DNA of 64,000 bases from Eledone cirrhosa (Eukaryota), in NCBI GenBank assembly GCA_964016885.1, contig OZ024747.1:8246001-8310000 (forward strand), read 5' to 3'. Below, in pieces: positions 3,883 through 59,273 of this stretch. The stretch's first letter is position 1; each line of letters starts with the position of its first letter. The notes under the pieces are model-generated. The model was given only the letters and a program-made list of their open reading frames with translations, was not told the origin of the DNA and searched no databases. A program made the position numbers and the translations under genes.

Positions 3883-4272
<390 letters not shown>

Positions 4273-5243: not shown

Positions 5244-8200
5244 TCACGGTCGTGTGTCATTGATTGAGAGGTGTAGTTGGGTAAGGTCGGCTTTTATCAC
5301 CTCATCCCAAGTCATCTTGGGTCTCCCCACTCCGCGGTTTCCATCAACTTCTAGTGCTCTGCACCTTTTTATGCAGCTGTCATCCTTCATACGCATCACA
5401 TGTCCATACCAGCGTAACCGCCTCTCCTGCACGCAGCATTTGATTCCTCTTATGCTCAGTCTCTCTCTCAATTCATTTATGCTTTGTCGTTCACGTATAT
5501 TACTGTTACACATCCATCGGAGCATGCAGGCTTCGTTTCTCTCTAATCTACGTAAGTCTTCCACCTTCAGCGCCCAGGTCTCACTACCATGCAACATCGC
5601 TGTTCGGATACACGCATCATACAGTCTGCCTTTCATTCTGAGGGAGAAGCCTTTTGCAGCTAGCAGTGGTAGTAGTTCCCTAAACTTCTTCCATCCCGTT
5701 CTTACCCTAGTTATTGTACTTTCTGAGCACCCACCTCCGTTGCTAATTCGGTCACCTAGGTAGCAGAAGCTGTCTACTGTTTCTACAGGGCCCTCCCAGA
5801 GATTGGTGGTACTTGTTTCCTGTGGCTGTTTGCTTGCTGTTTCAGCACAGCTGCTGCATGTGAATCCTACATTCTTAATTAAGCTTCCTGAGATCCCGCT
5901 ACATCTCTTGTGTACCCATTGTTTGCATTTGGGGCAAAGAATGGAGTTCCTACCTACACCTTTCCTACATACTGAGCAAGGCCATTTCCCTGAGGGGATC
6001 TGGGTTCTGTTTTCTCGTCTACTTATAAGGACCTTAGTCTTTGTCATGTTGACTTTGAGGCCCTTTCTCTCTAGTCCCTGCTTCCAGGTTTGGAATTTAT
6101 TCTCTAGTTCTACCATAGATTCAGCTATGAGTGCGAGGTCATCAGCATACAGGAGTTCCCATGGGCATCCGGTCTTAAACTCCTCCGTTATTGCCTGCAG
6201 GACTATGATGAACAGGAGAGGGCTAAGAACAGAGCCCTGGTGGACCCCAACCTGTACGCTAAATTCCTCGCTATACTCATTGCCAATCCTAACTTTGCTG
6301 ACTGCTCCCCTATACATGGCTTGTACCGCTTTCACAAGCCATTCATCTACTCCTAGTTTTCTAAGAGCCCACCAGATTACTGCACGTGGAACTCTGTCAA
6401 AGGCTTTCTCAAGGTCGACAAATGCCAAGTAGAGTGGCTTACTTTTAGCTAGGTACTTTTCCTGTAATTGCCTCACAAGGAAGAGCGCATCAGTGGTGCC
6501 TTTCCCTGGAACAAACCCAAATTGCATCTCGTCTATATTCACCCGGTCCCTAATCAGCTGTGCTATAACTCTTTCTGTTACTTTCATGACCTGGTCCATC
6601 AACTTTATACCTCTATAGTTTCCTCTATCTAGTGCATCGCCTTTACCTTTGTAGCAGTTGACAATGATGCTACTGCACCAATCTTTTGGTATGGCCCCCT
6701 CTAGTATTACCTGGTTAACGATACGTGTGGTTATAGTGTGACCTACAGACCCAGATGCCTTCAGCATCTCGGCAGCTATACCCGATGGACCGGTTGCCTT
6801 CCCTATCTTCATATCTCTGATTGCCTTACTTACTACGCTGCCGCTGACTTGTACTGCTGGTCCCTCTATAGGGTCTACGTGGGGTAGGGTCTCTTCTTCC
6901 CATGCATTCTCCTCATTTAGTAATCTATCATAATGACTCTTCCATGCATCTTTCTTCTCAGCACTTGTGAGGGCAAGCTCACCTTTATCATTCCGGATAC
7001 ACTTCTCTCCAATGACATCACAACTATCTCTGACACACTGCCTCGCAATCTTGAATACCTCCTGTTTCTGGTCCTCACGTTGTAAAACATGCTTGAATTT
7101 TCTATCCTCTGCTTCCCTCCTAGCTAAGTATACTTGTCGCCTAGCTTCCCTCTTGGTCTCTATGTAATGTACCCTGCTCCCCCCGTTCTTCCATTCTTTC
7201 CATGCCTGTCTCTTGGCCTTGACTGCTTCATCTACCTTATTGTTCCACCACCAAGTCACTCTCCTCCTGCTTGAGGTCTTACTCCAGCCACAAACCTCAT
7301 CCGTCGCCTCTAGTAAGTTATTTTTTAGGAACTCCCAGTTCTCTTCTACGTTAAATGTCTCTATCTGTTCTTCTTTACTGTCGTAGGCGTTGAGTAAAAT
7401 ATCTTTAAATCTGTTACTGGTTGAGGGGACTTTCAGCTTCCAGATCTTTCTTCTCCAGGTTGGCCTCTGTTTCAGGGCTCGTCTAGTTCTGACCGTGAGG
7501 TCGCTGACAACTAAGCTATGTTGGGATGTACATTCCTCACTAGGGAAGGCTTTTGTGTTTACGACCGTCCATCTGTCACGTCCTCTGATGAGGATAAAAT
7601 CTAACTGACTAGAGTGCTCCCCTGATCTATAGGTGATCAGGTGGTTGTCGGGTTTTTTAAAGTTTGTGTTACATATCGACATGTCATTGGCGTCGCAGAA
7701 TTCTAGAAGTCTGAATCCTTCCTCATTCCTTGTGCCAACTCCATGGCCTCCATGTACTCTATTGAAGCCGTCGCAGTGTTTACCTACGTGTCCGTTAAAA
7801 TCTCCTGCAATGATTAGGAAGTCCTTGTCGTCTGTTAGAGCAGTAGTGTGTATTAGGGACTCGTAAAACCTATCCTTAAGTTCGTCTGGCAGCCCCGATT
7901 GGGGTGCGTAAGCTGATATTATTGTGGTAATTGTCTTATTCAGGACTAGTCTGAGTTTAATGATTCTTGCATTTACCCTGTACACTGAGATTACTTTATC
8001 TACCCACTTGTCAGCTAATAGTATACCTACACCACCCATCCCATCGTCATTTCCCACCCAGAAAAATTTGTAGCACTGGCTTTTTCCTACAAGGACTCTA
8101 GCAGACCCTCCTCTCCATCTAGTCTCTTGCACACAGCATACATCAACTTCCTTTCGCTCTAGCATTTCTACGATTTCTCCTGCTCTTCCTTTCATTGAGC

Positions 8201-8306
8201 CTACATTGATTGTACCAACTCGGAGTTTTGGGCATTTGTCGACACTCGTAGGGGAGGGTCTCTGGGTTGGCGCTTCACGTGGGTGCTTGGTAGCTCGCAG
8301 ATTCAT
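5244..8306 (-). CDS. RTE ORF: AP endonuclease + reverse transcriptase + PHD-like Cys/His finger
   Basis: Motifs GTINVGS, CVQETRW, GDFNGHVG, SQH, QFGF, FVDLEKAFD, GVHQGSVLSP, YADD, CSVC...CPKCKQWVHKRC...[16 protein letters not shown] probable frameshift near 5262 removes the DRDxWR end. Confidence 0.95.
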   Translation of the reverse strand: MNLRATKHPREAPTQRPSPTSVDKCPKLRVGTINVGSMKGRAGEIVEMLERKEVDVCCVQETRWRGGSARVLVGKSQCYKFFWVGNDDGMGGVGILLADKWVDKVISVYRVNARIIKLRLVLNKTITTIISAYAPQSGLPDELKDRFYESLIHTTALTDDKDFLIIAGDFNGHVGKHCDGFNRVHGGHGVGTRNEEGFRLLEFCDANDMSICNTNFKKPDNHLITYRSGEHSSQLDFILIRGRDRWTVVNTKAFPSEECTSQHSLVVSDLTVRTRRALKQRPTWRRKIWKLKVPSTSNRFKDILLNAYDSKEEQIETFNVEENWEFLKNNLLEATDEVCGWSKTSSRRRVTWWWNNKVDEAVKAKRQAWKEWKNGGSRVHYIETKREARRQVYLARREAEDRKFKHVLQREDQKQEVFKIARQCVRDSCDVIGEKCIRNDKGELALTSAEKKDAWKSHYDRLLNEENAWEEETLPHVDPIEGPAVQVSGSVVSKAIRDMKIGKATGPSGIAAEMLKASGSVGHTITTRIVNQVILEGAIPKDWCSSIIVNCYKGKGDALDRGNYRGIKLMDQVMKVTERVIAQLIRDRVNIDEMQFGFVPGKGTTDALFLVRQLQEKYLAKSKPLYLAFVDLEKAFDRVPRAVIWWALRKLGVDEWLVKAVQAMYRGAVSKVRIGNEYSEEFSVQVGVHQGSVLSPLLFIIVLQAITEEFKTGCPWELLYADDLALIAESMVELENKFQTWKQGLERKGLKVNMTKTKVLISRRENRTQIPSGKWPCSVCRKGVGRNSILCPKCKQWVHKRCSGISGSLIKNVGFTCSSCAETASKQPQETSTTNLWEGPVETVDSFCYLGDRISNGGGCSESTITRVRTGWKKFRELLPLLAAKGFSLRMKGRLYDACIRTAMLHGSETWALKVEDLRRLERNEACMLRWMCNSNIRERQSINELRERLSIRGIKCCVQERRLRWYGHVMRMKDDSCIKRCRALEVDGNRGVGRPKMTWDEVIKADLTQLHLSINDTRP

Positions 8307-8621
8307 ATTTCATCTATTGATTCAGAGTTGCTCGTGTATTCCCAGCTCATCCATCCCTAACGGTGGGAAAATTGAGGGCTAGAAGGACAGTGGTGGTGGG
8401 GTAATGGCAGGGTGTGTTGGGATGCGCCAGAGGAGGAGAGAGTTAGTTAGGCAGGTAGTAGCAGCAGCAGCAGTGGAAATGGCATGCTAGGTTTGATTGG
8501 TCGAATAGACTATGGTGGTGTGTGGGGGTGGGGGGGAGGGAAATTGTGAGGTAGGAACTGAGGGTCGCATGGTAAATATCCAAGTTAATACTACATCAGT
8601 AAAATTAACAATAATAACGTC

Positions 8622-9456: not shown

Positions 9457-9656
9457 AACGAAGGAAATGTGGTAAGGAACCAGGTGGACCATAACGCACC
9501 AAAGTACTCAATACTTGGGGTAGTAGAGTGGGTTGGTTCCTTACCACATTTCCTTCGTTATCTAGCTCCTACTCCCGTAGTAGAGCACTTTCCGACCCTA
9601 CCACGCCGTATCCAGACTTTTCCGCTAAGCTCAATTCATTTCACCCGCACCATGCG

Positions 9657-9695
<39 letters not shown>

Positions 9696-9893
9696 AACAG
9701 CAGAGCTCAAGCCGTTTCGACGGCAGAGCTCAAGCCGTTTTGACAGCTAATTCTGGTCCAGAATTAGCCGTCGAAATGGCTTGAGCTCTGCCATCGTGGT
9801 GTCATACTTGTTCCTATTACCCACTCTACTAACCTAAGTATTGAGTACTTTGGTACGTTCTGGTCCATCTGGTTCCTTACCACATTTTCTTCG

Positions 9894-10050: not shown

Positions 10051-10121
10051 TATTTTATCTGATGAAAACACAAATGTTATTGCATGATGATATTTGTTTT
10101 TGAAATGCGCATAATAAAATA
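10051..10121 (+). ncRNA. Type I hammerhead ribozyme
   Basis: UAUUUUAU CUGAUGA [long stem II] GAAA UGCGCA UA^ AUAAAAUA. Perfect 8-bp stem I and palindromic AUGCGCAU stem III. Confidence 0.85.
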
Positions 10122-15049: not shown

Positions 15050-15390
15050 ATAATAATTGTTTCTACTTTTGGCACAAGGCCAGCAATTACCCAGTACGTT
15101 ACTGGTACTTTAGTTTATCGACCCCGTAAGGATGAAAGGCAAAGTTAACCTTTTATAATAATAATAATAATAATAATGGTTTCTTTATTTATTTATAATA
15201 ATAATAATAATAATTGCTTCTACTTTAGGCACAAGGCCAGCAATTACCCAGTACATTACTGGTACTTTATTTTATCGACCCCGTAAGGATGAAAGGCAAA
15301 GTCAACCTCAGCGGGATTTGAACTCAGATCGTAAAGGGACGTAACTATGCTGGAAAGCAGGGCGTCCAACCCTCTACAATAATAATAATA
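15050..15390 (-). mobile_element. Second tRNA-SINE family (Meta/Sauria-like central domain), two pieces
   Basis: Minus: gagttcaaatccc...actttgcctttcatccttacggggtcgataaa...gtaccagt, with (ATT)n tail. Confidence 0.75.
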
Positions 15391-15455
15391 ATATATATAA
15401 TATATATATAATATATAATATATATAATTATGTAATAAACATCATAAGACAATTA

Positions 15456-15527
15456 TTCAATTTACCAAAGGTTTCACGAAGACAGACGAGCTCAACAGAG
15501 ACGTCTGAAATCGCTCATCAGAATGAA
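15456..15527 (-). ncRNA. Type I hammerhead ribozyme
   Basis: Minus: UUCAUU CUGAUGA GCGA...AGACG...CGUCU...UCGU GAAA CC UUU GG UA^ AAUUGAA, with a GUA cleavage triplet. Confidence 0.8.
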
Positions 15528-15565
15528 AATTTAATCTTGAAAATTTACCCTTCCTACGGAAATAC

Positions 15566-15619
<54 letters not shown>

Positions 15620-15621
<2 letters not shown>

Positions 15622-15932
15622 GGAAAAGAGTCAGGACCCCGATGGCAGAGCTCCGGCCATTTCAACAGCTAGATCTGAACAGTTCAGATCTAGCTGTCGA
15701 AACGGCCAGAGCTCTGCTGTTGGGGTCCTGACTCTTTTCCTATTACCCACTCTACTACCCTAAGTATTGAGTACTCTGGTGCTTTATGGTCCATCTGGTT
15801 CCTTACCAGTAGAGTGGGTATAGGAACAAGTATGACCCCGACAGCAGAGCTCAAGCCGTTTTGACGGCTATTTCTGGACTGAATTAGCCGTCGAAACGGC
15901 TTGAGCTCTGCCATCAGAGTCATATTTGTTCC
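15620..15932. mobile_element. P1 fold-back element with two hairpins
   Basis: Inverted arms centred near 15680 and 15876. Confidence 0.65.
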
Positions 15933-16046
15933 TATATATATATATATATAAATGAAGTAATTCCGTCGGAAAAGTCCAGGAAAAAAGAGTGTTCTATGTA
16001 GGTAACAGAGCTTAATAGTCATGTAATAAACAACATAAGGCAATTA

Positions 16047-16107
16047 TTTCATTTACCAGTGGTTTCTTAAAAGCAAAATAATTTTGCTTTCAATCATCAG
16101 AATGAAA
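16047..16107 (-). ncRNA. Type I hammerhead ribozyme
   Basis: Minus: UUUCAUU CUGAUGA UUGAAAGCAAAA UUA UUUUGCUUUUAA GAAA CC ACU GG UA^ AAUGAAA. Perfect 7-bp stem I and 12-bp stem II. Confidence 0.88.
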
Positions 16108-16462
16108 AAATCCTGGTGTATTTATTGGCGTTGGATTTTAAAAACCTATATATATGTATAATCATCACCATATATATTATTTTATATAGAAATGACTTCT
16201 GCAGGACTATACTCTACCTATGTATTGGGTACCTTTTCCAACTGTGGTTGCCTCCCAACAGCTTGAGAATCTACATATTATATATATATTAGAGTATGGG
16301 GTTAACCAAACAGATGTGTGTGAACCACACCATGGTCTGTCGGTTGTGAAGTAGATAAAAAGAAGCACTCAACGACCTGTATAAATAGTGCAAATCAGAG
16401 TATTATATATTGATAAAAGATCAGAGGCCATATTCACTTGATTCAGGTTTATTTAAAACTCT

Positions 16463-17109
16463 GTTATACATATTTCACTGAGGACTGTCAGTTGTGACAG
16501 CCTGAGCTCTTCAGACGTTATACATATTTCACTGAGGACTGTCAGTTATGACAGCCTGAGCTCTTCAGACGTTATACATATTTCACTGAGGACTGTCAGT
16601 TATGACAGCCTGAGCTCTTCAGACGTTATACATATTTCACTGAGGACTGTCAGTTATGACAGCCTGAGCTCTTCAGACGTTATACATATTTCACTGAGGA
16701 CTATCAGTTATGACAGCCTGAGCTCTTCAGACGTTATACATATTTCACTGAGGACTATCAGTTATGACAGCCTGAGCTCTTCAGACGTTATACATATTTC
16801 ACTGAGGACTGTCAGTTATGACAGCCTGAGCTCTTCAGACGTTATACATATTTCACTGAGGACTGTCAGTTATGACAGCCTGAGCTCTTCAGACGTTATA
16901 CATATTTCACTGAGGACTGTCAGTTATGACAGCCTGAGCTCTTCAGACGTTATACATATTTCACTGAGGACTGTCAGTTATGACAGCCTGAGCTCTTCAG
17001 ACGTTATACATATTTCACTGAGGACTGTCAGTTATGACAGCCTGAGCTCTTCAGACGTTATACATATTTCACTGAGGACTGTCAGTTATGACAGCCTGAG
17101 CTCTTCAGA
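16463..17109 (-). ncRNA. Tandem array of 12 x 54-bp hammerhead ribozyme units
   Basis: Minus unit: GU CUGAAGA GCUCAGGCUGUCA UAAC UGACAGUCCUCAGU GAAA UAUGUA UA^ AC. Period 54, 12 copies. Confidence 0.8.
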
Positions 17110-17187
17110 TGGCAAAATCTAAAATAAACATTGAAAGTTCCTAAGAAACCTTTAAAATTGGAAAAGTCTAATAATTCCCCCGAAAAA

Positions 17188-17303
17188 GTTCTTTTCATGA
17201 TACAGGGGACCGGCCGAGTGCATGGTGTTGTTTCTTTGATGGCCAGCTGACCATCAAAGAAACAACAACACGCATTCGACCGGCCACATGAATCATGAAA
17301 AGA
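17188..17303. repeat. Imperfect ~55-bp inverted repeat (hairpin)
   Basis: cttttcatgat...tttctttgatgg / ccatcaaagaaa...atcatgaaaag, centred on cagctg. Confidence 0.8.
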
Positions 17304-17329
17304 AAATCTTTTCTGTTGTGAGATTTAGT

Positions 17330-17455
17330 TTTTTAAGGTCAGTCTTCCTAACCTCATCCCATGTCTTCCTAGGTCTGCCTCTTCCATGGGTCCCAGCAAC
17401 TGGGGTTTCTCTGCATTTCTTTATGCAGCTATTATCTTCCATGAACATTACATGC
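17330..17455 (-). mobile_element. RTE C-terminal fragment
   Basis: Translates HVMFMEDNSCIKKCRETPVAGTHGRGRPRKTWDEVRKTD. Confidence 0.8.
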
Positions 17456-29790: not shown

Positions 29791-30828
29791 TCATCATCAT
29801 CAACGTTTAACGTCCGTGTTCCACGCTTGCATGGGTTTGGACGGGGGTATTCCCACTTGAGGCAAGAGTGATTGTCTTGCTCGCATAGGACTGTCTGGCA
29901 GGTTTTCTACAGTTGGATGCCCTTCCTAACACCAACCACATTTACAGTGTGGGACTGGGAGGTTTTTACCGTGTTGCCTACATGCCCACATTACAGCGTG
30001 GACTGTGTGTTTTTTTGTTGTGACACCTACACGATCTCATTTGTTTCGGCCTGGATGTTGTGGCACCAACATAACTTTACATAGGAGGGGGTGGTGTGGA
30101 TGGGGGTGGTGGGACGGGGTTGTTAGAGATGCCTACTGGCTGTAGTAGGTTTTACTATGTATTTAGGTAAGGCGGGTCTTCTCTATTACTGAGTACCGCC
30201 AAAGGTCTCGGTCCAGTGACATTGTCTTGGAGAGGTGTAAGTGTGTGAGGTCGGAGTTTATCAGCTCGTCCCAGGATTTTCTAGGTCTGCCTATTCCGTA
30301 GCTACCGTCTATCTTTATTGCCCTGCACTTTGTTATACAGCTATCGACTTTCATGCGCATCACGTGTCCGTACCAACGTAGCCTTCTCTCGAGTAAACAA
30401 CATCTGATCCCTCTTATTTCTAATTTTTTCCTTAGTTCGTTTATGCTTTGCCGTTCACGTATATTACTATTACACATCCAGCGGAGCATGCAAGCTTCGT
30501 TCCTCTCTAGTCTGCGTATATCCTCTGCGCACAATGCCCAGGTCTCACTGCCATGTAACATTGCTGTTCGTATGCAGGCATCATACAACCTGCCTTTCAT
30601 TTTTAGGGAGAACCCTTTAGCGGCTAATAGTGGTATAAGCTCTCTGAACTTTTTCCATCCAGTTCTGACTCTAGCTACTGTACTTTCGGAGCACCCTCCC
30701 CCACTGCTGATTTTGTCACCCAGGTAACGGAAGCTGTCCACTATTTCTATAGAGCCCTCTGCGCAATTGAAAGAGTTAGTATTTTGTGGGCACTCGCTGC
30801 TACTTATTGCACCAGAACACCGCCCACA
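29791..30828 (-). mobile_element. 5'-truncated RTE LINE (family B)
   Basis: ORF 30163-30741 is the RTE C-terminus, followed by 3' UTR and (GAT)n. (TA)n flanks. Confidence 0.93.
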
Positions 30829-30852
30829 TATATATATATATATATATATATA

Positions 30853-31328
30853 GAATACAATTAGAATTTAACTTCAGGCATAGCTGTATACAGATATGTA
30901 TAGAAATGTTGTATTTCTAATGAAACACGGTATGTTTACAGGTAAACATTTAGGAAACTGTAGCTATGCAAAAAACACCAGGGCTAATGCTCTCTGGTGG
31001 TGTTCAGCAGAACCAAGGGGGACAATCGTCGATGCTTTTCGGACTTAACTGGTCCTCAACAGGACAATCCCTCCCACACTTGTGACTGCAGGACTTGAAA
31101 ACAATTGTGAATATATAGTTTTCTCATCTGTGTAAATGAGGTGATTAATCTCATTTGCATATGAAGCTGCATAAGTTGGCTCAACTTATAATAGAATAGA
31201 ATTAGGATTTAGCTTCAAGCGTAGTTGTATACAGATATGTATAGAAATTTCGTATTTCTAAAGAAACACTGTATGTTTACAGGTGAACATTTAGGAAGCC
31301 GTAGCTATGGAAAAAACACTGGGACTAA
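30853..31328 (-). mobile_element. Retrozyme-like 341-bp partial tandem repeat containing a degenerate hammerhead (31025-31068)
   Basis: ~135-bp direct repeats at 30853 and 31194. Minus: AUUGUC CUGUUGA GGAC cagttaa GUCC GAAA AGCA UC GACGAU. Confidence 0.6.
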
Positions 31329-48995: not shown

Positions 48996-49149
48996 CGTGT
49001 CTATATATATGTATGTATATATACATCATTATCACCGTGTATATATATATATATATATATATAACGAAGGAAATGTGGTAAGGAACCAGGTGGACCATAA
49101 CTAGCCATCGAAACGGCTTGAGCTCAACCGTCGGGGTCTTACTGGTTCC

Positions 49150-53660: not shown

Positions 53661-54363
<703 letters not shown>

Positions 54364-54384
54364 TATATATATTTATATAAATAT

Positions 54385-55947
54385 ATTCCTGAAAGTTAAC
54401 CTGCTGAAGGCGACAGATGAAATCTGTGGGTGTAGCAGACCTATAGGCAGGAGGAGGAACAGTAAGGTGGAGGAGTCAATCAAGGCCAAAAAGCAAGCTT
54501 GGAAAGTATGGCGGGATGGGGGAAGTAGAGAGCACTATCAAGTGGCCAGGAGGGAAGCTAGGAGACAAGTGTACCTTGCAAGAAGGGAAGCAGAGGAAAG
54601 AAAGTTCAAGCATATTCTACAATGCGAGGACCAAAAACGTGAGGTGTTCAGGATTGCTAGACAATGTGTCAAAGAAAACCATGATATTGTCGGGGAGAAG
54701 TGTGTCCTTAATGATGATGGTATACTTGCCATCACTGATACTGATAAGAAGGTAGCTTGGAAGTGTCACTATGAGAGGCTACTAAATGAGGAGAATAAGT
54801 GGGAAAAAGATAGTCTGCCCCAAATCGATCCAATAGAGGGACCAGCAGTGCTAGTTGAAGGTAGTATAATAAGTAAGGCAATCAAAGATATGAAGACAGG
54901 CAAAGCAGCTGGGCCTTCGGAGATAGTTGCTGAAATGCTGAAAGCATCTGGATCGGTGGGACACACTATGGTCTCCCGGATAGTAAACCAAGTCATACAG
55001 AATGGGGTCATACCAAATGACTGGCGTAGCAGCACCATCATTAACTGCTACAAGGGTAAAGGAGATGCCCTAGATAGGGGAAACTATAGAGGCATTAAAT
55101 TAATTGACCATGTCATGAAAGTCACAAAAAAAGTTATAGTGCATCTAATCTGAGAGCGAATTGATCTAGATGAAATGCAGTTTGGGTTTGTGTCAGGTAA
55201 AAGTACCACAGACGCTCTTTTCCTTGTATGACAACTACGACTTGGAGGACAGAGTGCCCCGCTCCATTATCTGGTGGGCTCTTAGAAAACTAGGTGTTGA
55301 TGAATGGCTCATGAGAGCTATACAAGCCATGTATAAAGAAACAGTCAGCAAGGTTAGAATTAACAACGAATATAGTGAAGAATTTCGTAAAAGTCGGTGT
55401 TCATCAGGGCTCTGTCCTTAGCCCCCTCCTATTTATTATTGCCCTTCAGGCTATAACAGAGGAGTTCAAGACCAGCTGCCCATGGCATCTTCTATACGCA
55501 GATGATATAATGCTCATAGCTGAATCAATGGCTGAACTAGAGAAAAAATTCCAAACTTGGAAGCATAGCCTAGAATCAAAAGGCCTTAAAATTAACTTGT
55601 CTAAGACTAAAGTTCTAGTTTGTAGGAAGGAAAATAGGGCACAGGTCCCCTCTGGGAAATGACCATGCTTAGTGTGTAGGAAAGGAGTAGGCAGAAACTC
55701 TGTTTTATGTCCCAAATGCAAAGTATAAAAAACACACAGTCCACACTGTAATGTGGCTGTGTAGGTAACACGGTAAAAACCTCCCAGTCCACACTGTAAA
55801 CGTGGTTGGTGTTAGGAAGGGCATCCAGCCGTAGAAAACTCGCCAGACAGTCCTATACAAGCAGGACAACCAATCCTGCCTCACGTGGGACAATAACCAT
55901 CTAAACCCATGCTAGCGTGGAAGATAGACGTTAAACGATGATGATGA
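54385..55947 (+). mobile_element. Degenerate RTE LINE with internal deletions
   Basis: RT motifs (YKGKGDALDRGNYRGI, QGSVLSP, YADD) with stops and frameshifts. It jumps from the Cys finger to the 3' UTR at ~55723. Confidence 0.92.
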
Positions 55948-56747: not shown

Positions 56748-58543
56748 TCATCATCATCATCAACGTTTAACGTCCGTGTTCCACGCTTGCAGGGGTTTGG
56801 ACGGGGGTAGTCCCACTTGAGGCAAGAGTGATTATCTTGCTCGCATAGGACTGTCTGGCAGGTTTTCTACAGTTGGATGCCCTTCCTAACACCAACCACA
56901 TTTACAGTGTGGGTCTGGGAGGTTTTTACCGTGTTGCCTACACGGCCACATTACAGCGTGGACTGTGTGTTTTTTTGTCGTGACACCTACACGATCTCAT
57001 TTGTTTCGGCCTGGATGGCGCGGCACCAACATAACTTTACATAGAACGGGGTGGTGTGGATGGGGGGGGTGTATTTTGTTAGAGATGCCTACTGGCTGGA
57101 GTAGGTTTTACTATATATTTAGGTAAGGCGGGTCTTCTCTGTTACTGAGTACCGCCAAACTGGCTGGAGTAGGTTTTACTATATATTTAGGTAAGGCGGG
57201 TCTTCTCTGTTACTGAGTACCGCCAAAGGTCTCGGTCCAGTGACATTGTCTTGGAGAGGTGTAAGTGTGTGATGTCGGAGTTTATCAGCTCATCCCAGGT
57301 TTTTCTAGGTCTGCCTATTCCGTGACTACCGTCTATCTTTATTGCCCTGCACTTTGTTATACAGCTATCGACTTTCATGCGCATCACGTGTCCATACCAA
57401 CGTAGCCTTCTCTCGAGTAAACAACATCTGATCCCTCTTATCTCTAATTTTTTCCTTAGTTCGTTTATGCTTTGCCGTTCACGTATATTACTGTTACACA
57501 TCCAGCGGTGCATGCAAGCTTCGTTCCTCTCTAGTCTGCGTATATCCTCTGCACACAATGCCCAGGTCTCACTGCCATGCAGCATTGCTGTTCGTATGCA
57601 GGCATCGTACAACCTGCCTTTCATTTTTAGGGAGAACCCTTTAGCAGCTAATAGTGGTATAAGCTCTCTGAACTTTTTCCAACCAGTTCTAACTCTAGCT
57701 ACAGTACTTTCAGAGCACCCTCCCCCACTGCTGATTTTATCGCCCAGGTAACGGAAGCTGTCCACTATTTCTATAGAACCCTCTGCGCAATTGAAAGAGC
57801 TAGTATTGTGTGGGCACTTGCTGCTACTTATTGCACCAGAACACCGGCCACATGTAAAATCTATGTTCTTAGTTAGCTTACCTGTGATCCCACTACATCT
57901 TTTATGCACCCATACTTTGCATTTAGGACATAAAATGGAGTTTCTACCTACGCCTTTCCTACACACCGAGCACGACCATTTCCCAGAAGGGACCGCCGCC
58001 TTGTTTTCTTTCCTACAAACTAGAACTTTGGTCTTAGCCAGGTTAATTTTAAGTCCTTTTGACTTAGGCCGTGCTTCCATGTTTGGAATTTCTTCTCTAG
58101 CTCGGCCATTGATTCCGCTATGAGTGTCAGGTCGTCTGCGTATAGGAGTTCCCATGGGCAGCCTGTCTTGAACTCCTCTGTTATAGCCTGAAGGGCAATA
58201 ATAAATAGTAGAGGGCTGAGAACAGAGCCCTGATGGACGCCAACTTTTACGCTAAACTCTTCACTATATTCGTTGTTAATTCTAACCTTGCTGACTGTTT
58301 CTTTATACATGGCTTGTATAGCCCTCACAAGCCATTCGTCAATGCCTAGTTTTGTAAGAGCCCACCAGATAATGGAGCGGGGGACTCTGTCGAAGGCTTT
58401 CTCCAAGTCGACAAAAGCTAAGTAGAGGGGTTTACCTTTAGTTAGGTACTTCTCCTGTAGTTGTCGTACTATGAAAAGAGCGTCTGTGGTACTTTTGCCT
58501 GACACAAACCCGAACTGCATTCCATCTAGGTCAATTCTCTCTC
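56746..58543 (-). mobile_element. 5'-truncated RTE LINE (family B) with RT and PHD-like finger
   Basis: ORFs 58020-58520 and 57187-58155 are frameshifted. There is a 68-bp duplication at 57091/57159. Confidence 0.94.
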
Positions 58544-58735
58544 TGTATTTTTAACTGTTTGTCAATCAATGATGAAAAGTATTTACTCATAGATTAAAAT
58601 TCATAGATTAAACCTTTTTGATTGCCAAATAAATTAACTATGGAGATATAAAAGATACAGAAGCGAAAAGCAACCAAACAGTGAGTGTGTTCTGGCAATA
58701 TTATTACAACAATATGACCCTCCCCAAGTATAACA

Positions 58736-59097: not shown

Positions 59098-59273
59098 CAA
59101 AGGAATTGTGGTAAGGAACCAGGTGGACCATAACGCACCAGAGTACTCAATACTTAGACTAGTAGAGTGGGAAATAGAAAAAAAATAGGAAAAACAGGCA
59201 AAAAATTCTAATTTAGTCCAGAAATAGCCGTCGAAACGACTTGAGCTCTGCCGTCGGGGCCATACTTTTTCCT
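59096..59273. mobile_element. P1 element copy
   Basis: Both orientations of P1 arms, within (TA)n. Confidence 0.6.

Follow-up and report, generated by a model that had tools for sequence, protein, structure and literature searches.

The window, by which the whole analysed stretch of 64 kb is meant, is AT-microsatellite-rich animal DNA from an assembly of 3.0 Gb. A descriptor scan recovers two type I hammerhead motifs in it, both on the minus strand and both where the initial annotation had placed them, and alignment confirms its statement that the two copies have flanks in common. Each belongs to the pseudo-LTR of one of two sister Penelope-like element (PLE) families, referred to as A and B, and both lie within the following series of features.

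15428 to 15535, minus strand: family A insertion, untailed arm, a 5′-truncated pseudo-LTR piece with hammerhead
15456 to 15528, minus strand: hammerhead copy 1, family A, type I, with the core CUGAUGA at 15521-15515
15514 to 15476, minus strand: stem II region of copy 1, 39 nt, with a G10.1-U11.1 wobble and 4+6 bp
15475 to 15472, minus strand: GAAA of copy 1; stem III is ACC-UUU-GGU-A and the predicted cut 15463/15462
15544 to 15569, plus strand: family A insertion, tailed arm, the last ~26 nt of the element tail, then (TA)n
15569 to 15621, no strand: (TA)n target tract, a repeat tract
15619 to 15937, no strand: triple-hairpin repeat, a nested insertion with a PLE piece on either side, unrelated to both and a repeat family of its own
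15951 to 16145, minus strand: family B insertion, a 5′-truncated 3′ end that keeps hammerhead, pseudo-LTR end and a tail of ~65 nt, with TA repeats on either side
16047 to 16107, minus strand: hammerhead copy 2, family B, type I, with the core CUGAUGA at 16100-16094
16093 to 16067, minus strand: stem II region of copy 2, 27 nt, with U10.1-A11.1 and 12 bp
16066 to 16063, minus strand: GAAA of copy 2; stem III is ACCA-C-UGGU (ACC-ACU-GGU-A), the predicted cut 16054/16053 and stem I 7 bp

The core positions C3 U4 G5 A6 N7 G8 A9, G12 A13 A14, A15.1-U16.1 and H17 are complete in both copies, and the pair G10.1-C11.1 is absent from both, with G-U in copy 1 and U-A in copy 2. Folding agrees with the earlier claim that stem II pairs in each copy, the mean pair probability being 0.96 for copy 1, where 4+6 bp enclose a 3x3 pyrimidine internal loop, and 0.93 for copy 2. 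The hammerhead is the minimum-energy fold of copy 2, with helices I, II and III of 7, 12 and 3 bp, an open stem I, and mean pair probabilities of 0.92, 0.93 and 0.51 for the three stems. Three helices can also be drawn for copy 1; its stem I is unformed (pair probability 0.01), since the base at 15459 disrupts a pair found in 64 of the 68 parsed family copies, and this mismatch likely impairs the copy.

Comparison with Rfam yielded no ribozyme family, neither over the whole window at the gathering score nor over 15300-17400 at E up to 10, where 48 sub-threshold matches, mostly to hairpin models, were returned. The negative result lowers only the claim of belonging to a curated Rfam hammerhead family. 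The hairpins, which the initial annotation had counted into a dense ribozyme/PLE hotspot, likewise matched no ribozyme family.

The two motifs are adjacent through nested insertion, three insertions (family A, the hairpin repeat and family B) being joined at (TA)n. The arms of the family A piece stand head-to-head in a two-armed insertion, 15428-15569, a layout that recurs at four other genomic loci (L032, L033, L046 and L058), and its untailed arm stops ~33 nt beyond the predicted cut, in AT-rich repeat. A genome search with 15431-16120 (690 nt) returned 8,115 first-look candidates, and among the 40 candidates scored the window alone spans the entire query, the others matching separate parts of it; the family A piece has 1,623 first-look candidates. 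The link to PLEs drawn in the initial annotation is confirmed by full-length relatives, which encode an ORF with RT and GIY-YIG, while its dense "hotspot" comes down to ordinary nesting of (TA)n-targeting repeats. Among 82 other ~3-kb loci anchored on family A or B, the hammerhead of a second subfamily occurs in five, against a uniform expectation of ~1% per locus, and the same hairpin repeat in 13; the clustering of these repeats therefore follows from shared (TA)n targeting.

The surroundings hold further repeats. The hairpin repeat is abundant and (TA)n-inserted, lying at 15619-15937 and near 3971-4110, 9472-9880, 47793, 49078-49128 and 59111-59251; it ends in a near-perfect hairpin of 50-60 bp, its loop varies among copies, and the copies are often head-to-head. 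Another inverted repeat, of 54 bp, without a loop and unrelated to the triple hairpin, occupies 17193-17300. The 54-nt tandem array at 16463-17109 consists of twelve units, each with a minus-strand hammerhead-like motif of a different family that has a CUGAAGA core, a minimal near-palindromic stem III and a 4-bp stem I; retrozyme units measure 170-400 nt, and those of the array are shorter. Two further hammerhead motifs, at 10059-10113 (plus strand) and 4457-4409 (minus strand), belong to other families; their stems II are long and their minimal stems III palindromic, and the first of the two motifs recurs as an inverted pair in L063. On the minus strand, 5244-8309 is an open frame of 1,021 aa in which motifs of a LINE-type endonuclease and reverse-transcriptase-like motifs can be made out by eye, and fragments of the same LINE type are found near 30163-30867, 54245-55153 and 57187-58550.

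The parent elements were reached by an upstream walk from family B copies to the end of an ORF, after which further stretches were inspected, 14 of ten kb for family B and 16 for family A. Four of the 14 (L095, L096, L102 and L106) are tandem copies that show, in this order, hammerhead, pseudo-LTR end, ~65-nt tail, 5′ UTR, ATG and ORF, with a second hammerhead downstream in L095 (4.7 kb) and L106 (4.3 kb). Family A ends and UTR are joined to an ORF in two of the 16 (L140 and L138), and this ORF is 70-74% identical to that of family B. The order within the element is tail, 5′ UTR, an ORF with RT and GIY-YIG, a microsatellite-rich 3′ UTR of 1.2-2.4 kb, and hammerhead, the ATG lying ~200 nt beyond the predicted cut. 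Tandem pseudo-LTRs, inverted 5′-truncated copies and an optional tail are all present, and most copy ends run into TA repeats, amounting to a (TA)n insertion preference.

The Hydra clade is defined in PMC8557442 by RWK, DKT, a CxCX5C linker and the CxxC and CxH motifs, and an octopus family is included in it. The protein of L095 comprises a 502-aa RT piece with YRDD and a 227-aa EN piece, with a frameshift between them; RWK at 41, DKT at 118, KDHK and YRDD are found, DKG is absent, and the EN piece carries the CxCX5C linker, CxxC+E and N..CxH. With every Hydra motif tested present, the two sister families are, as judged by motifs, EN+ Hydra-clade PLEs. The first guess, an assignment to Neptune or Nematis, was ruled out by the absence of the CX2-5CxxC zinc-finger linker, which was looked for in the L095 protein. 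A Pfam scan of the L095 RT and EN pieces returned no significant RT or GIY-YIG match, and the GIY-YIG match of a related ORF in L068 was below the cut-off. In L062 and L068, PLE ORFs adjoin family B copies; they were set aside, their membership in these families being unsupported, as was an ORF start inside stem II like that of the element PAc, since frames from the hammerhead soon hit stops. The N-terminal protein resembles that of the octopus element Hydra-1_Obim (PMC8557442), a likeness judged by eye.

Two other observations concern the untranslated regions. In families A and B alike, a pyrimidine tract ~75 nt upstream of the hammerhead closes with AG; it resembles a 3′ splice site and lies at the end of the microsatellite-rich UTR (L095, 3300-3460; L042, 1400-1510, family A), and PLE introns that end at the hammerhead are described in PMC4209133. 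At G000:C2:169702711-169703470 (L293) there are five tandem copies of 183 bp that consist of family B tail and 5′ UTR, without the hammerhead.

The two family patterns match the genome 5,121 and 6,333 times (11,454 in total), and reversed controls gave 0 matches, so the motifs are not due to chance. A parser that by design leaves out the stem I variant of copy 1 extracted 228 distinct motifs from 233 loci; 222 of them fall into 12 subfamilies, and the six unclassified ones were dropped. A tree built from the 3′ flank only has the form A,(A2,(C,(Bold,(B,Bg)))), and places A3, F, E and D on the opposite side; it rests on 95 columns and many of its nodes are weak.

The stem II sequences of the two window copies had been described as unrelated, which does not hold. 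Anchored on the core, each family-majority arm of A shares 5 of its 11 bases with the corresponding arm of B, and the subfamilies between them can be aligned in register, with no gaps in stem II, so that single steps link A to B. From A to A2 two stem II mismatches become pairs; from A2 to C pair 2 goes from C-G to U-A and pair 7 is restored; from C to Bold pairs 6, 7 and 10 are changed on both sides; and from Bold to B pair 3 goes from G-C to G-U. G-U and A-C intermediates are present in real copies, including between C and Bold, and the stems II of the window copies are thus the two ends of one series. Since they are homologous, covariation can be counted pair by pair.

The check for covariation, which the initial annotation had put forward, came out in favour on one count and short on another. 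Column shuffles over six edges among eight in-register subfamilies, with present-day majorities used instead of ancestors, gave four compensated double changes against a null of 0.72 (P=0.002), and a parsimony test of joint changes gave 4 vs 1.9 (P=0.07). Among 21 natural copies, 86.8% of the 281 stem II cells pair and 37 cells are changed on both sides; neither value is reached in any of 500 shuffles, and slid partners pair at 24-47%. The two measures resistant to relatedness were not above the null in the same 21-copy shuffles (326/500 for pairs with two-sided changes, 260/500 for pair types). The non-Watson-Crick cells comprise 18 G-U vs 5 A-C, stem I covaries too, the A/B/C side being set apart from the D/E/F side by a paired one-base indel, and three pairs of stem II have been lost in family A. 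Stem II evolves 2.5x faster than the tail (1.0 vs 0.40 steps per column), so template switching may contribute. The claim that structure was kept while sequence changed stands, and the pair-by-pair counts on homologous stems support it more directly than the argument from which it was drawn.

The core behaves differently from the tail, as one of 12 core positions varies among the 12 subfamilies (U4C in 2/3 E copies) vs 53 of 91 tail columns (Fisher P=0.001). N7 has taken five steps, and no variation is seen at A15.1-U16.1 or at the GUA site. The pattern by which most subfamilies were recovered holds the core fixed, which inflates core conservation for them, and the A/B/C lineage alone was checked with the core left free; by eye, 83 of the first 100 of 7,620 matches listed then have an intact core, and broken cores define no subfamily among those 100. 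Together, the compensated changes and the near-invariant core support selection on the hammerhead fold; selection for self-cleavage itself is something that we only infer.

At 10.1-11.1 the 222 copies carry U-A (92), G-U (51), A-U (32), C-A (22), A-A (10), C-U (8), A-G (3), G-C (1) and others (3), with a mismatch in 46, and the usual G10.1-C11.1 is the state of no subfamily. This pair is usually G-C and the most conserved one after A15.1-U16.1, a natural U-U having been reported (PMC3088659), and PMC4209133 gives G10.1-C11.1 as highly conserved in PLE hammerheads. The 25 Hydra hammerheads in File S2 of PMC8557442, read by eye, have 14 U-U, 1 U-C, 2 G-U, 1 bulged and 7 G-C, which makes 15 mismatched; with 18 of 25 lacking G-C, the departure at 10.1-11.1 is a trait of the clade and not a novelty.

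The ends of the copies bear on how the elements insert. Copies end ~33 nt (pseudo-LTR end) or ~98 nt (tail end) beyond the predicted cut, mostly into TA repeats, and 28 of 30 head-to-head pairs are made of one tailed and one untailed arm. This combination is as predicted by two RT start sites, such as PMC11167929 describes for PAc in vitro, where two internal start sites are used and both target strands are extended. Between the two points at which copies end, the tail of all 12 subfamilies (e.g. 15985-16015) holds a short, conserved hairpin, which is comparable to the PAc stem-loop at the RT start sites.

No enrichment of 5′ ends at the predicted cut was found among genome pattern matches, 71 falling there vs 83 in the downstream and 60 in the upstream control (P=0.33), with windows of three positions for the cut, three downstream and four upstream, truncation patterns that differ in length, and some matches that are internal duplications or deletions and not true ends. 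The whole motif is spanned by 7,620 copies. Among the first 30 listed of 143 copies in which the tail leads into the 5′ UTR, 24 continue across the site, and no start falls within 3 nt of it; six of the 30 start +23 to +36 past the cut (L264, L268, L275, L282, L286 and L293). Those six starts are near the pseudo-LTR end, often directly after (TA)n, which suggests that the true start of the unit is there. Stem III is unstable as a hairpin, and as a duplex it reaches -5.1 (A/A), -8.2 (B/B) and -7.0 kcal/mol (A/B), in line with the dimer model and with the low activity reported in PMC4209133.

The reading that we favour, with a probability of roughly 0.75, is that sister Hydra-clade families lie side by side in (TA)n, that their stems II diverged stepwise and mostly with compensation, and that the fold is under selection while its predicted cutting is slow or conditional. 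The element protein would nick (TA)n on both strands and begin reverse transcription at two sites, which would give two-armed insertions. Both start sites would lie 3′ of the cut, and cut RNA would lose them, the integrated copies deriving presumably from RNA in which both hammerheads were still uncut. Copying of cut RNA should leave an excess of 5′ ends at the cut, and no such excess is seen, which points to an uncut source RNA; because copies almost never begin at the predicted cut, cutting is likely to be slow or conditional. Predicted cleavage may require a partner hammerhead, through a swapped stem III, or the element protein, and would serve RNA processing or turnover, not the setting of cDNA ends. 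Dimeric PLE hammerheads have reportedly been described by Lunse et al. in 2017. Active master elements are likely selected to keep a cleavage-competent fold. More tentatively, the hammerhead may be a deliberately weakened switch, its core kept through at least 12 subfamilies and G10.1-C11.1 never used, by which cutting limits the element's own spread; a cut just upstream of both RT start sites would remove RNA from the transposition pool.

The same motif might instead be retained as a folded landmark, acting for instance close to the priming sites as a signal for the RT, in binding or in folding, and cutting would no longer be needed. Such a role would suit the missing end footprint at the predicted cut and the near absence of G10.1-C11.1, several subfamilies having C-A, A-A, C-U or A-G; hammerhead mutants moreover left in vitro insertion unaffected, with no reads ending at the site (PMC11167929), and non-cleavage functions are left open by PMC4209133. 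We nevertheless regard it as unlikely, for the conserved positions are exactly the catalytic ones, N7 as the one free core position changes five times, and A15.1-U16.1 and GUA are invariant, whereas a binding site need not track the catalytic pattern so closely. Pairing in stem II could, for its part, be kept by mutational template switching, in which one hairpin arm is copied onto the other as the element is reverse-transcribed or replicated, and not by selection. This proposal draws on the 2.5 times faster change of stem II relative to the tail, on the fact that a single edge, C to Bold, holds three of the four double changes and on the frequent fold-back junctions of these elements, but copies between C and Bold do carry G-U and A-C intermediates, the sense strand has more G-U than A-C, stem I covaries as well, with its paired one-base indel, although its strands are 45-60 nt apart, and the core is conserved although it is not a hairpin, all of which leaves template switching quite improbable.

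It is hardly credible that the two hammerheads bound one paired RNA of 590 nt that is excised and circularised, as a retrozyme or a nascent one, with a mixed A/B stem III. The stretch between the predicted cuts does fold at -302.5 kcal/mol (z = -24.5), a basal helix joins its ends, the mixed stem III duplex has its -7.0 kcal/mol, and both motifs are on the same strand; yet this very stable fold is due to the hairpin repeat and two inverted tails, the parts are three repeat families joined at (TA)n, and the whole 690 nt is matched by the window alone among the 40 candidates scored. Stem I of copy 1 is mismatched besides, and that of copy 2 is unformed in the minimum-energy fold of 681 nt. The retrozyme reading was rejected because the 590-nt unit between both cut sites is unique, that is, single-copy and composite. 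Animal non-LTR retrozymes, as presented in bioRxiv 10.64898/2026.07.22.740005 and PMC7229834, likewise have type I hammerheads on one strand at either side of a structured segment a few hundred nt long, but in them one unit with an identical hammerhead is repeated in tandem, whereas the stretch in the window is a single composite of three repeat families.

Taken as Hydra-clade families with a selected fold and slow or conditional predicted cutting, the elements can be set beside known systems. According to PMC8557442, Hydra-clade PLEs have in common with them a single ORF, the motifs RWK/DKT/CxCX5C/CxxC/CxH, a C-terminal GIY-YIG, (TA)n targets, a type I hammerhead near the 3′ end, a near-palindromic stem III of 3-4 bp with a loop of 1-3 nt (ACCA-A-UGGU in Hydra-1_Obim) and a non-canonical 10.1-11.1. 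They differ in several respects: stem II is 10-13 bp here vs 3-7 bp in File S2 of that source, the 10.1-11.1 states C-A, A-A, C-U, A-G and U-A are absent from that file, the 3′ UTR here is microsatellite-rich and 1.2-2.4 kb long, the tail is ~65 nt vs 30-40 in Hydra elements, and tandem pseudo-LTRs are clear here, whereas Hydra-1_Obim is listed there without one. The hammerhead sequence is unlike that of Hydra-1_Obim, so these are other families.

The minimal PLE hammerheads of PMC4209133 are similar in residing in pseudo-LTRs, in numbering thousands per genome with several covarying consensus families, in their enlarged helix II and weak palindromic helix III, and in the occurrence of inverted pairs with 100-700 bp between them; their reported in vitro activity is low, and a dimer is proposed. 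They possess G10.1-C11.1 and an unpaired base after A9, neither of which is found here, and where PMC4209133 proposes that cleavage processes the transposition RNA, the copy ends here are without such a footprint. The Poseidon element PAc of the green anole (PMC11167929) offers the closest parallel in insertion, with a tail delimited by two internal RT start sites and with both target strands cut and extended, features that are probable here, and with a hammerhead upstream of the start sites and no reads, or here copies, ending at the cut. PAc is of a different clade, its ORF begins in stem II whereas the ATG here is ~200 nt past the cut, and its cleavage was shown to be protein-assisted, whereas cutting by the present hammerheads is predicted from sequence. 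Compensatory changes in a repeat-borne hammerhead have also been reported from cricket satellite DNA (PMC2837043).

PLE hammerheads, covarying consensus families within one genome and octopus Hydra elements with hammerheads are already published (PMC4209133, PMC8557442), and because PLE hammerheads, their within-genome variability and the Hydra clade are all on record, the finding as first written is an ordinary one. Mollusc examples may be listed in the supplements of PMC4209133 and of bioRxiv 10.64898/2026.07.22.740005; within the literature outside Repbase and most subscription journals, nothing turned up that treats these families or describes a series of subfamilies of this kind. What is added is a traceable path of compensatory change within one genome, together with genome-scale evidence which suggests that integrated copies come from RNA uncut at the hammerhead. 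The function of PLE hammerheads is called "still unclear" in PMC8557442, and cleavage is not needed in vitro for PAc insertion, as PMC11167929 reports. The subfamilies bear on the role of the PLE hammerhead and provide natural variants for assay; were the hammerhead indeed a weakened switch, these stepwise subfamilies in one genome would form a ready allelic series on the purpose that it serves.
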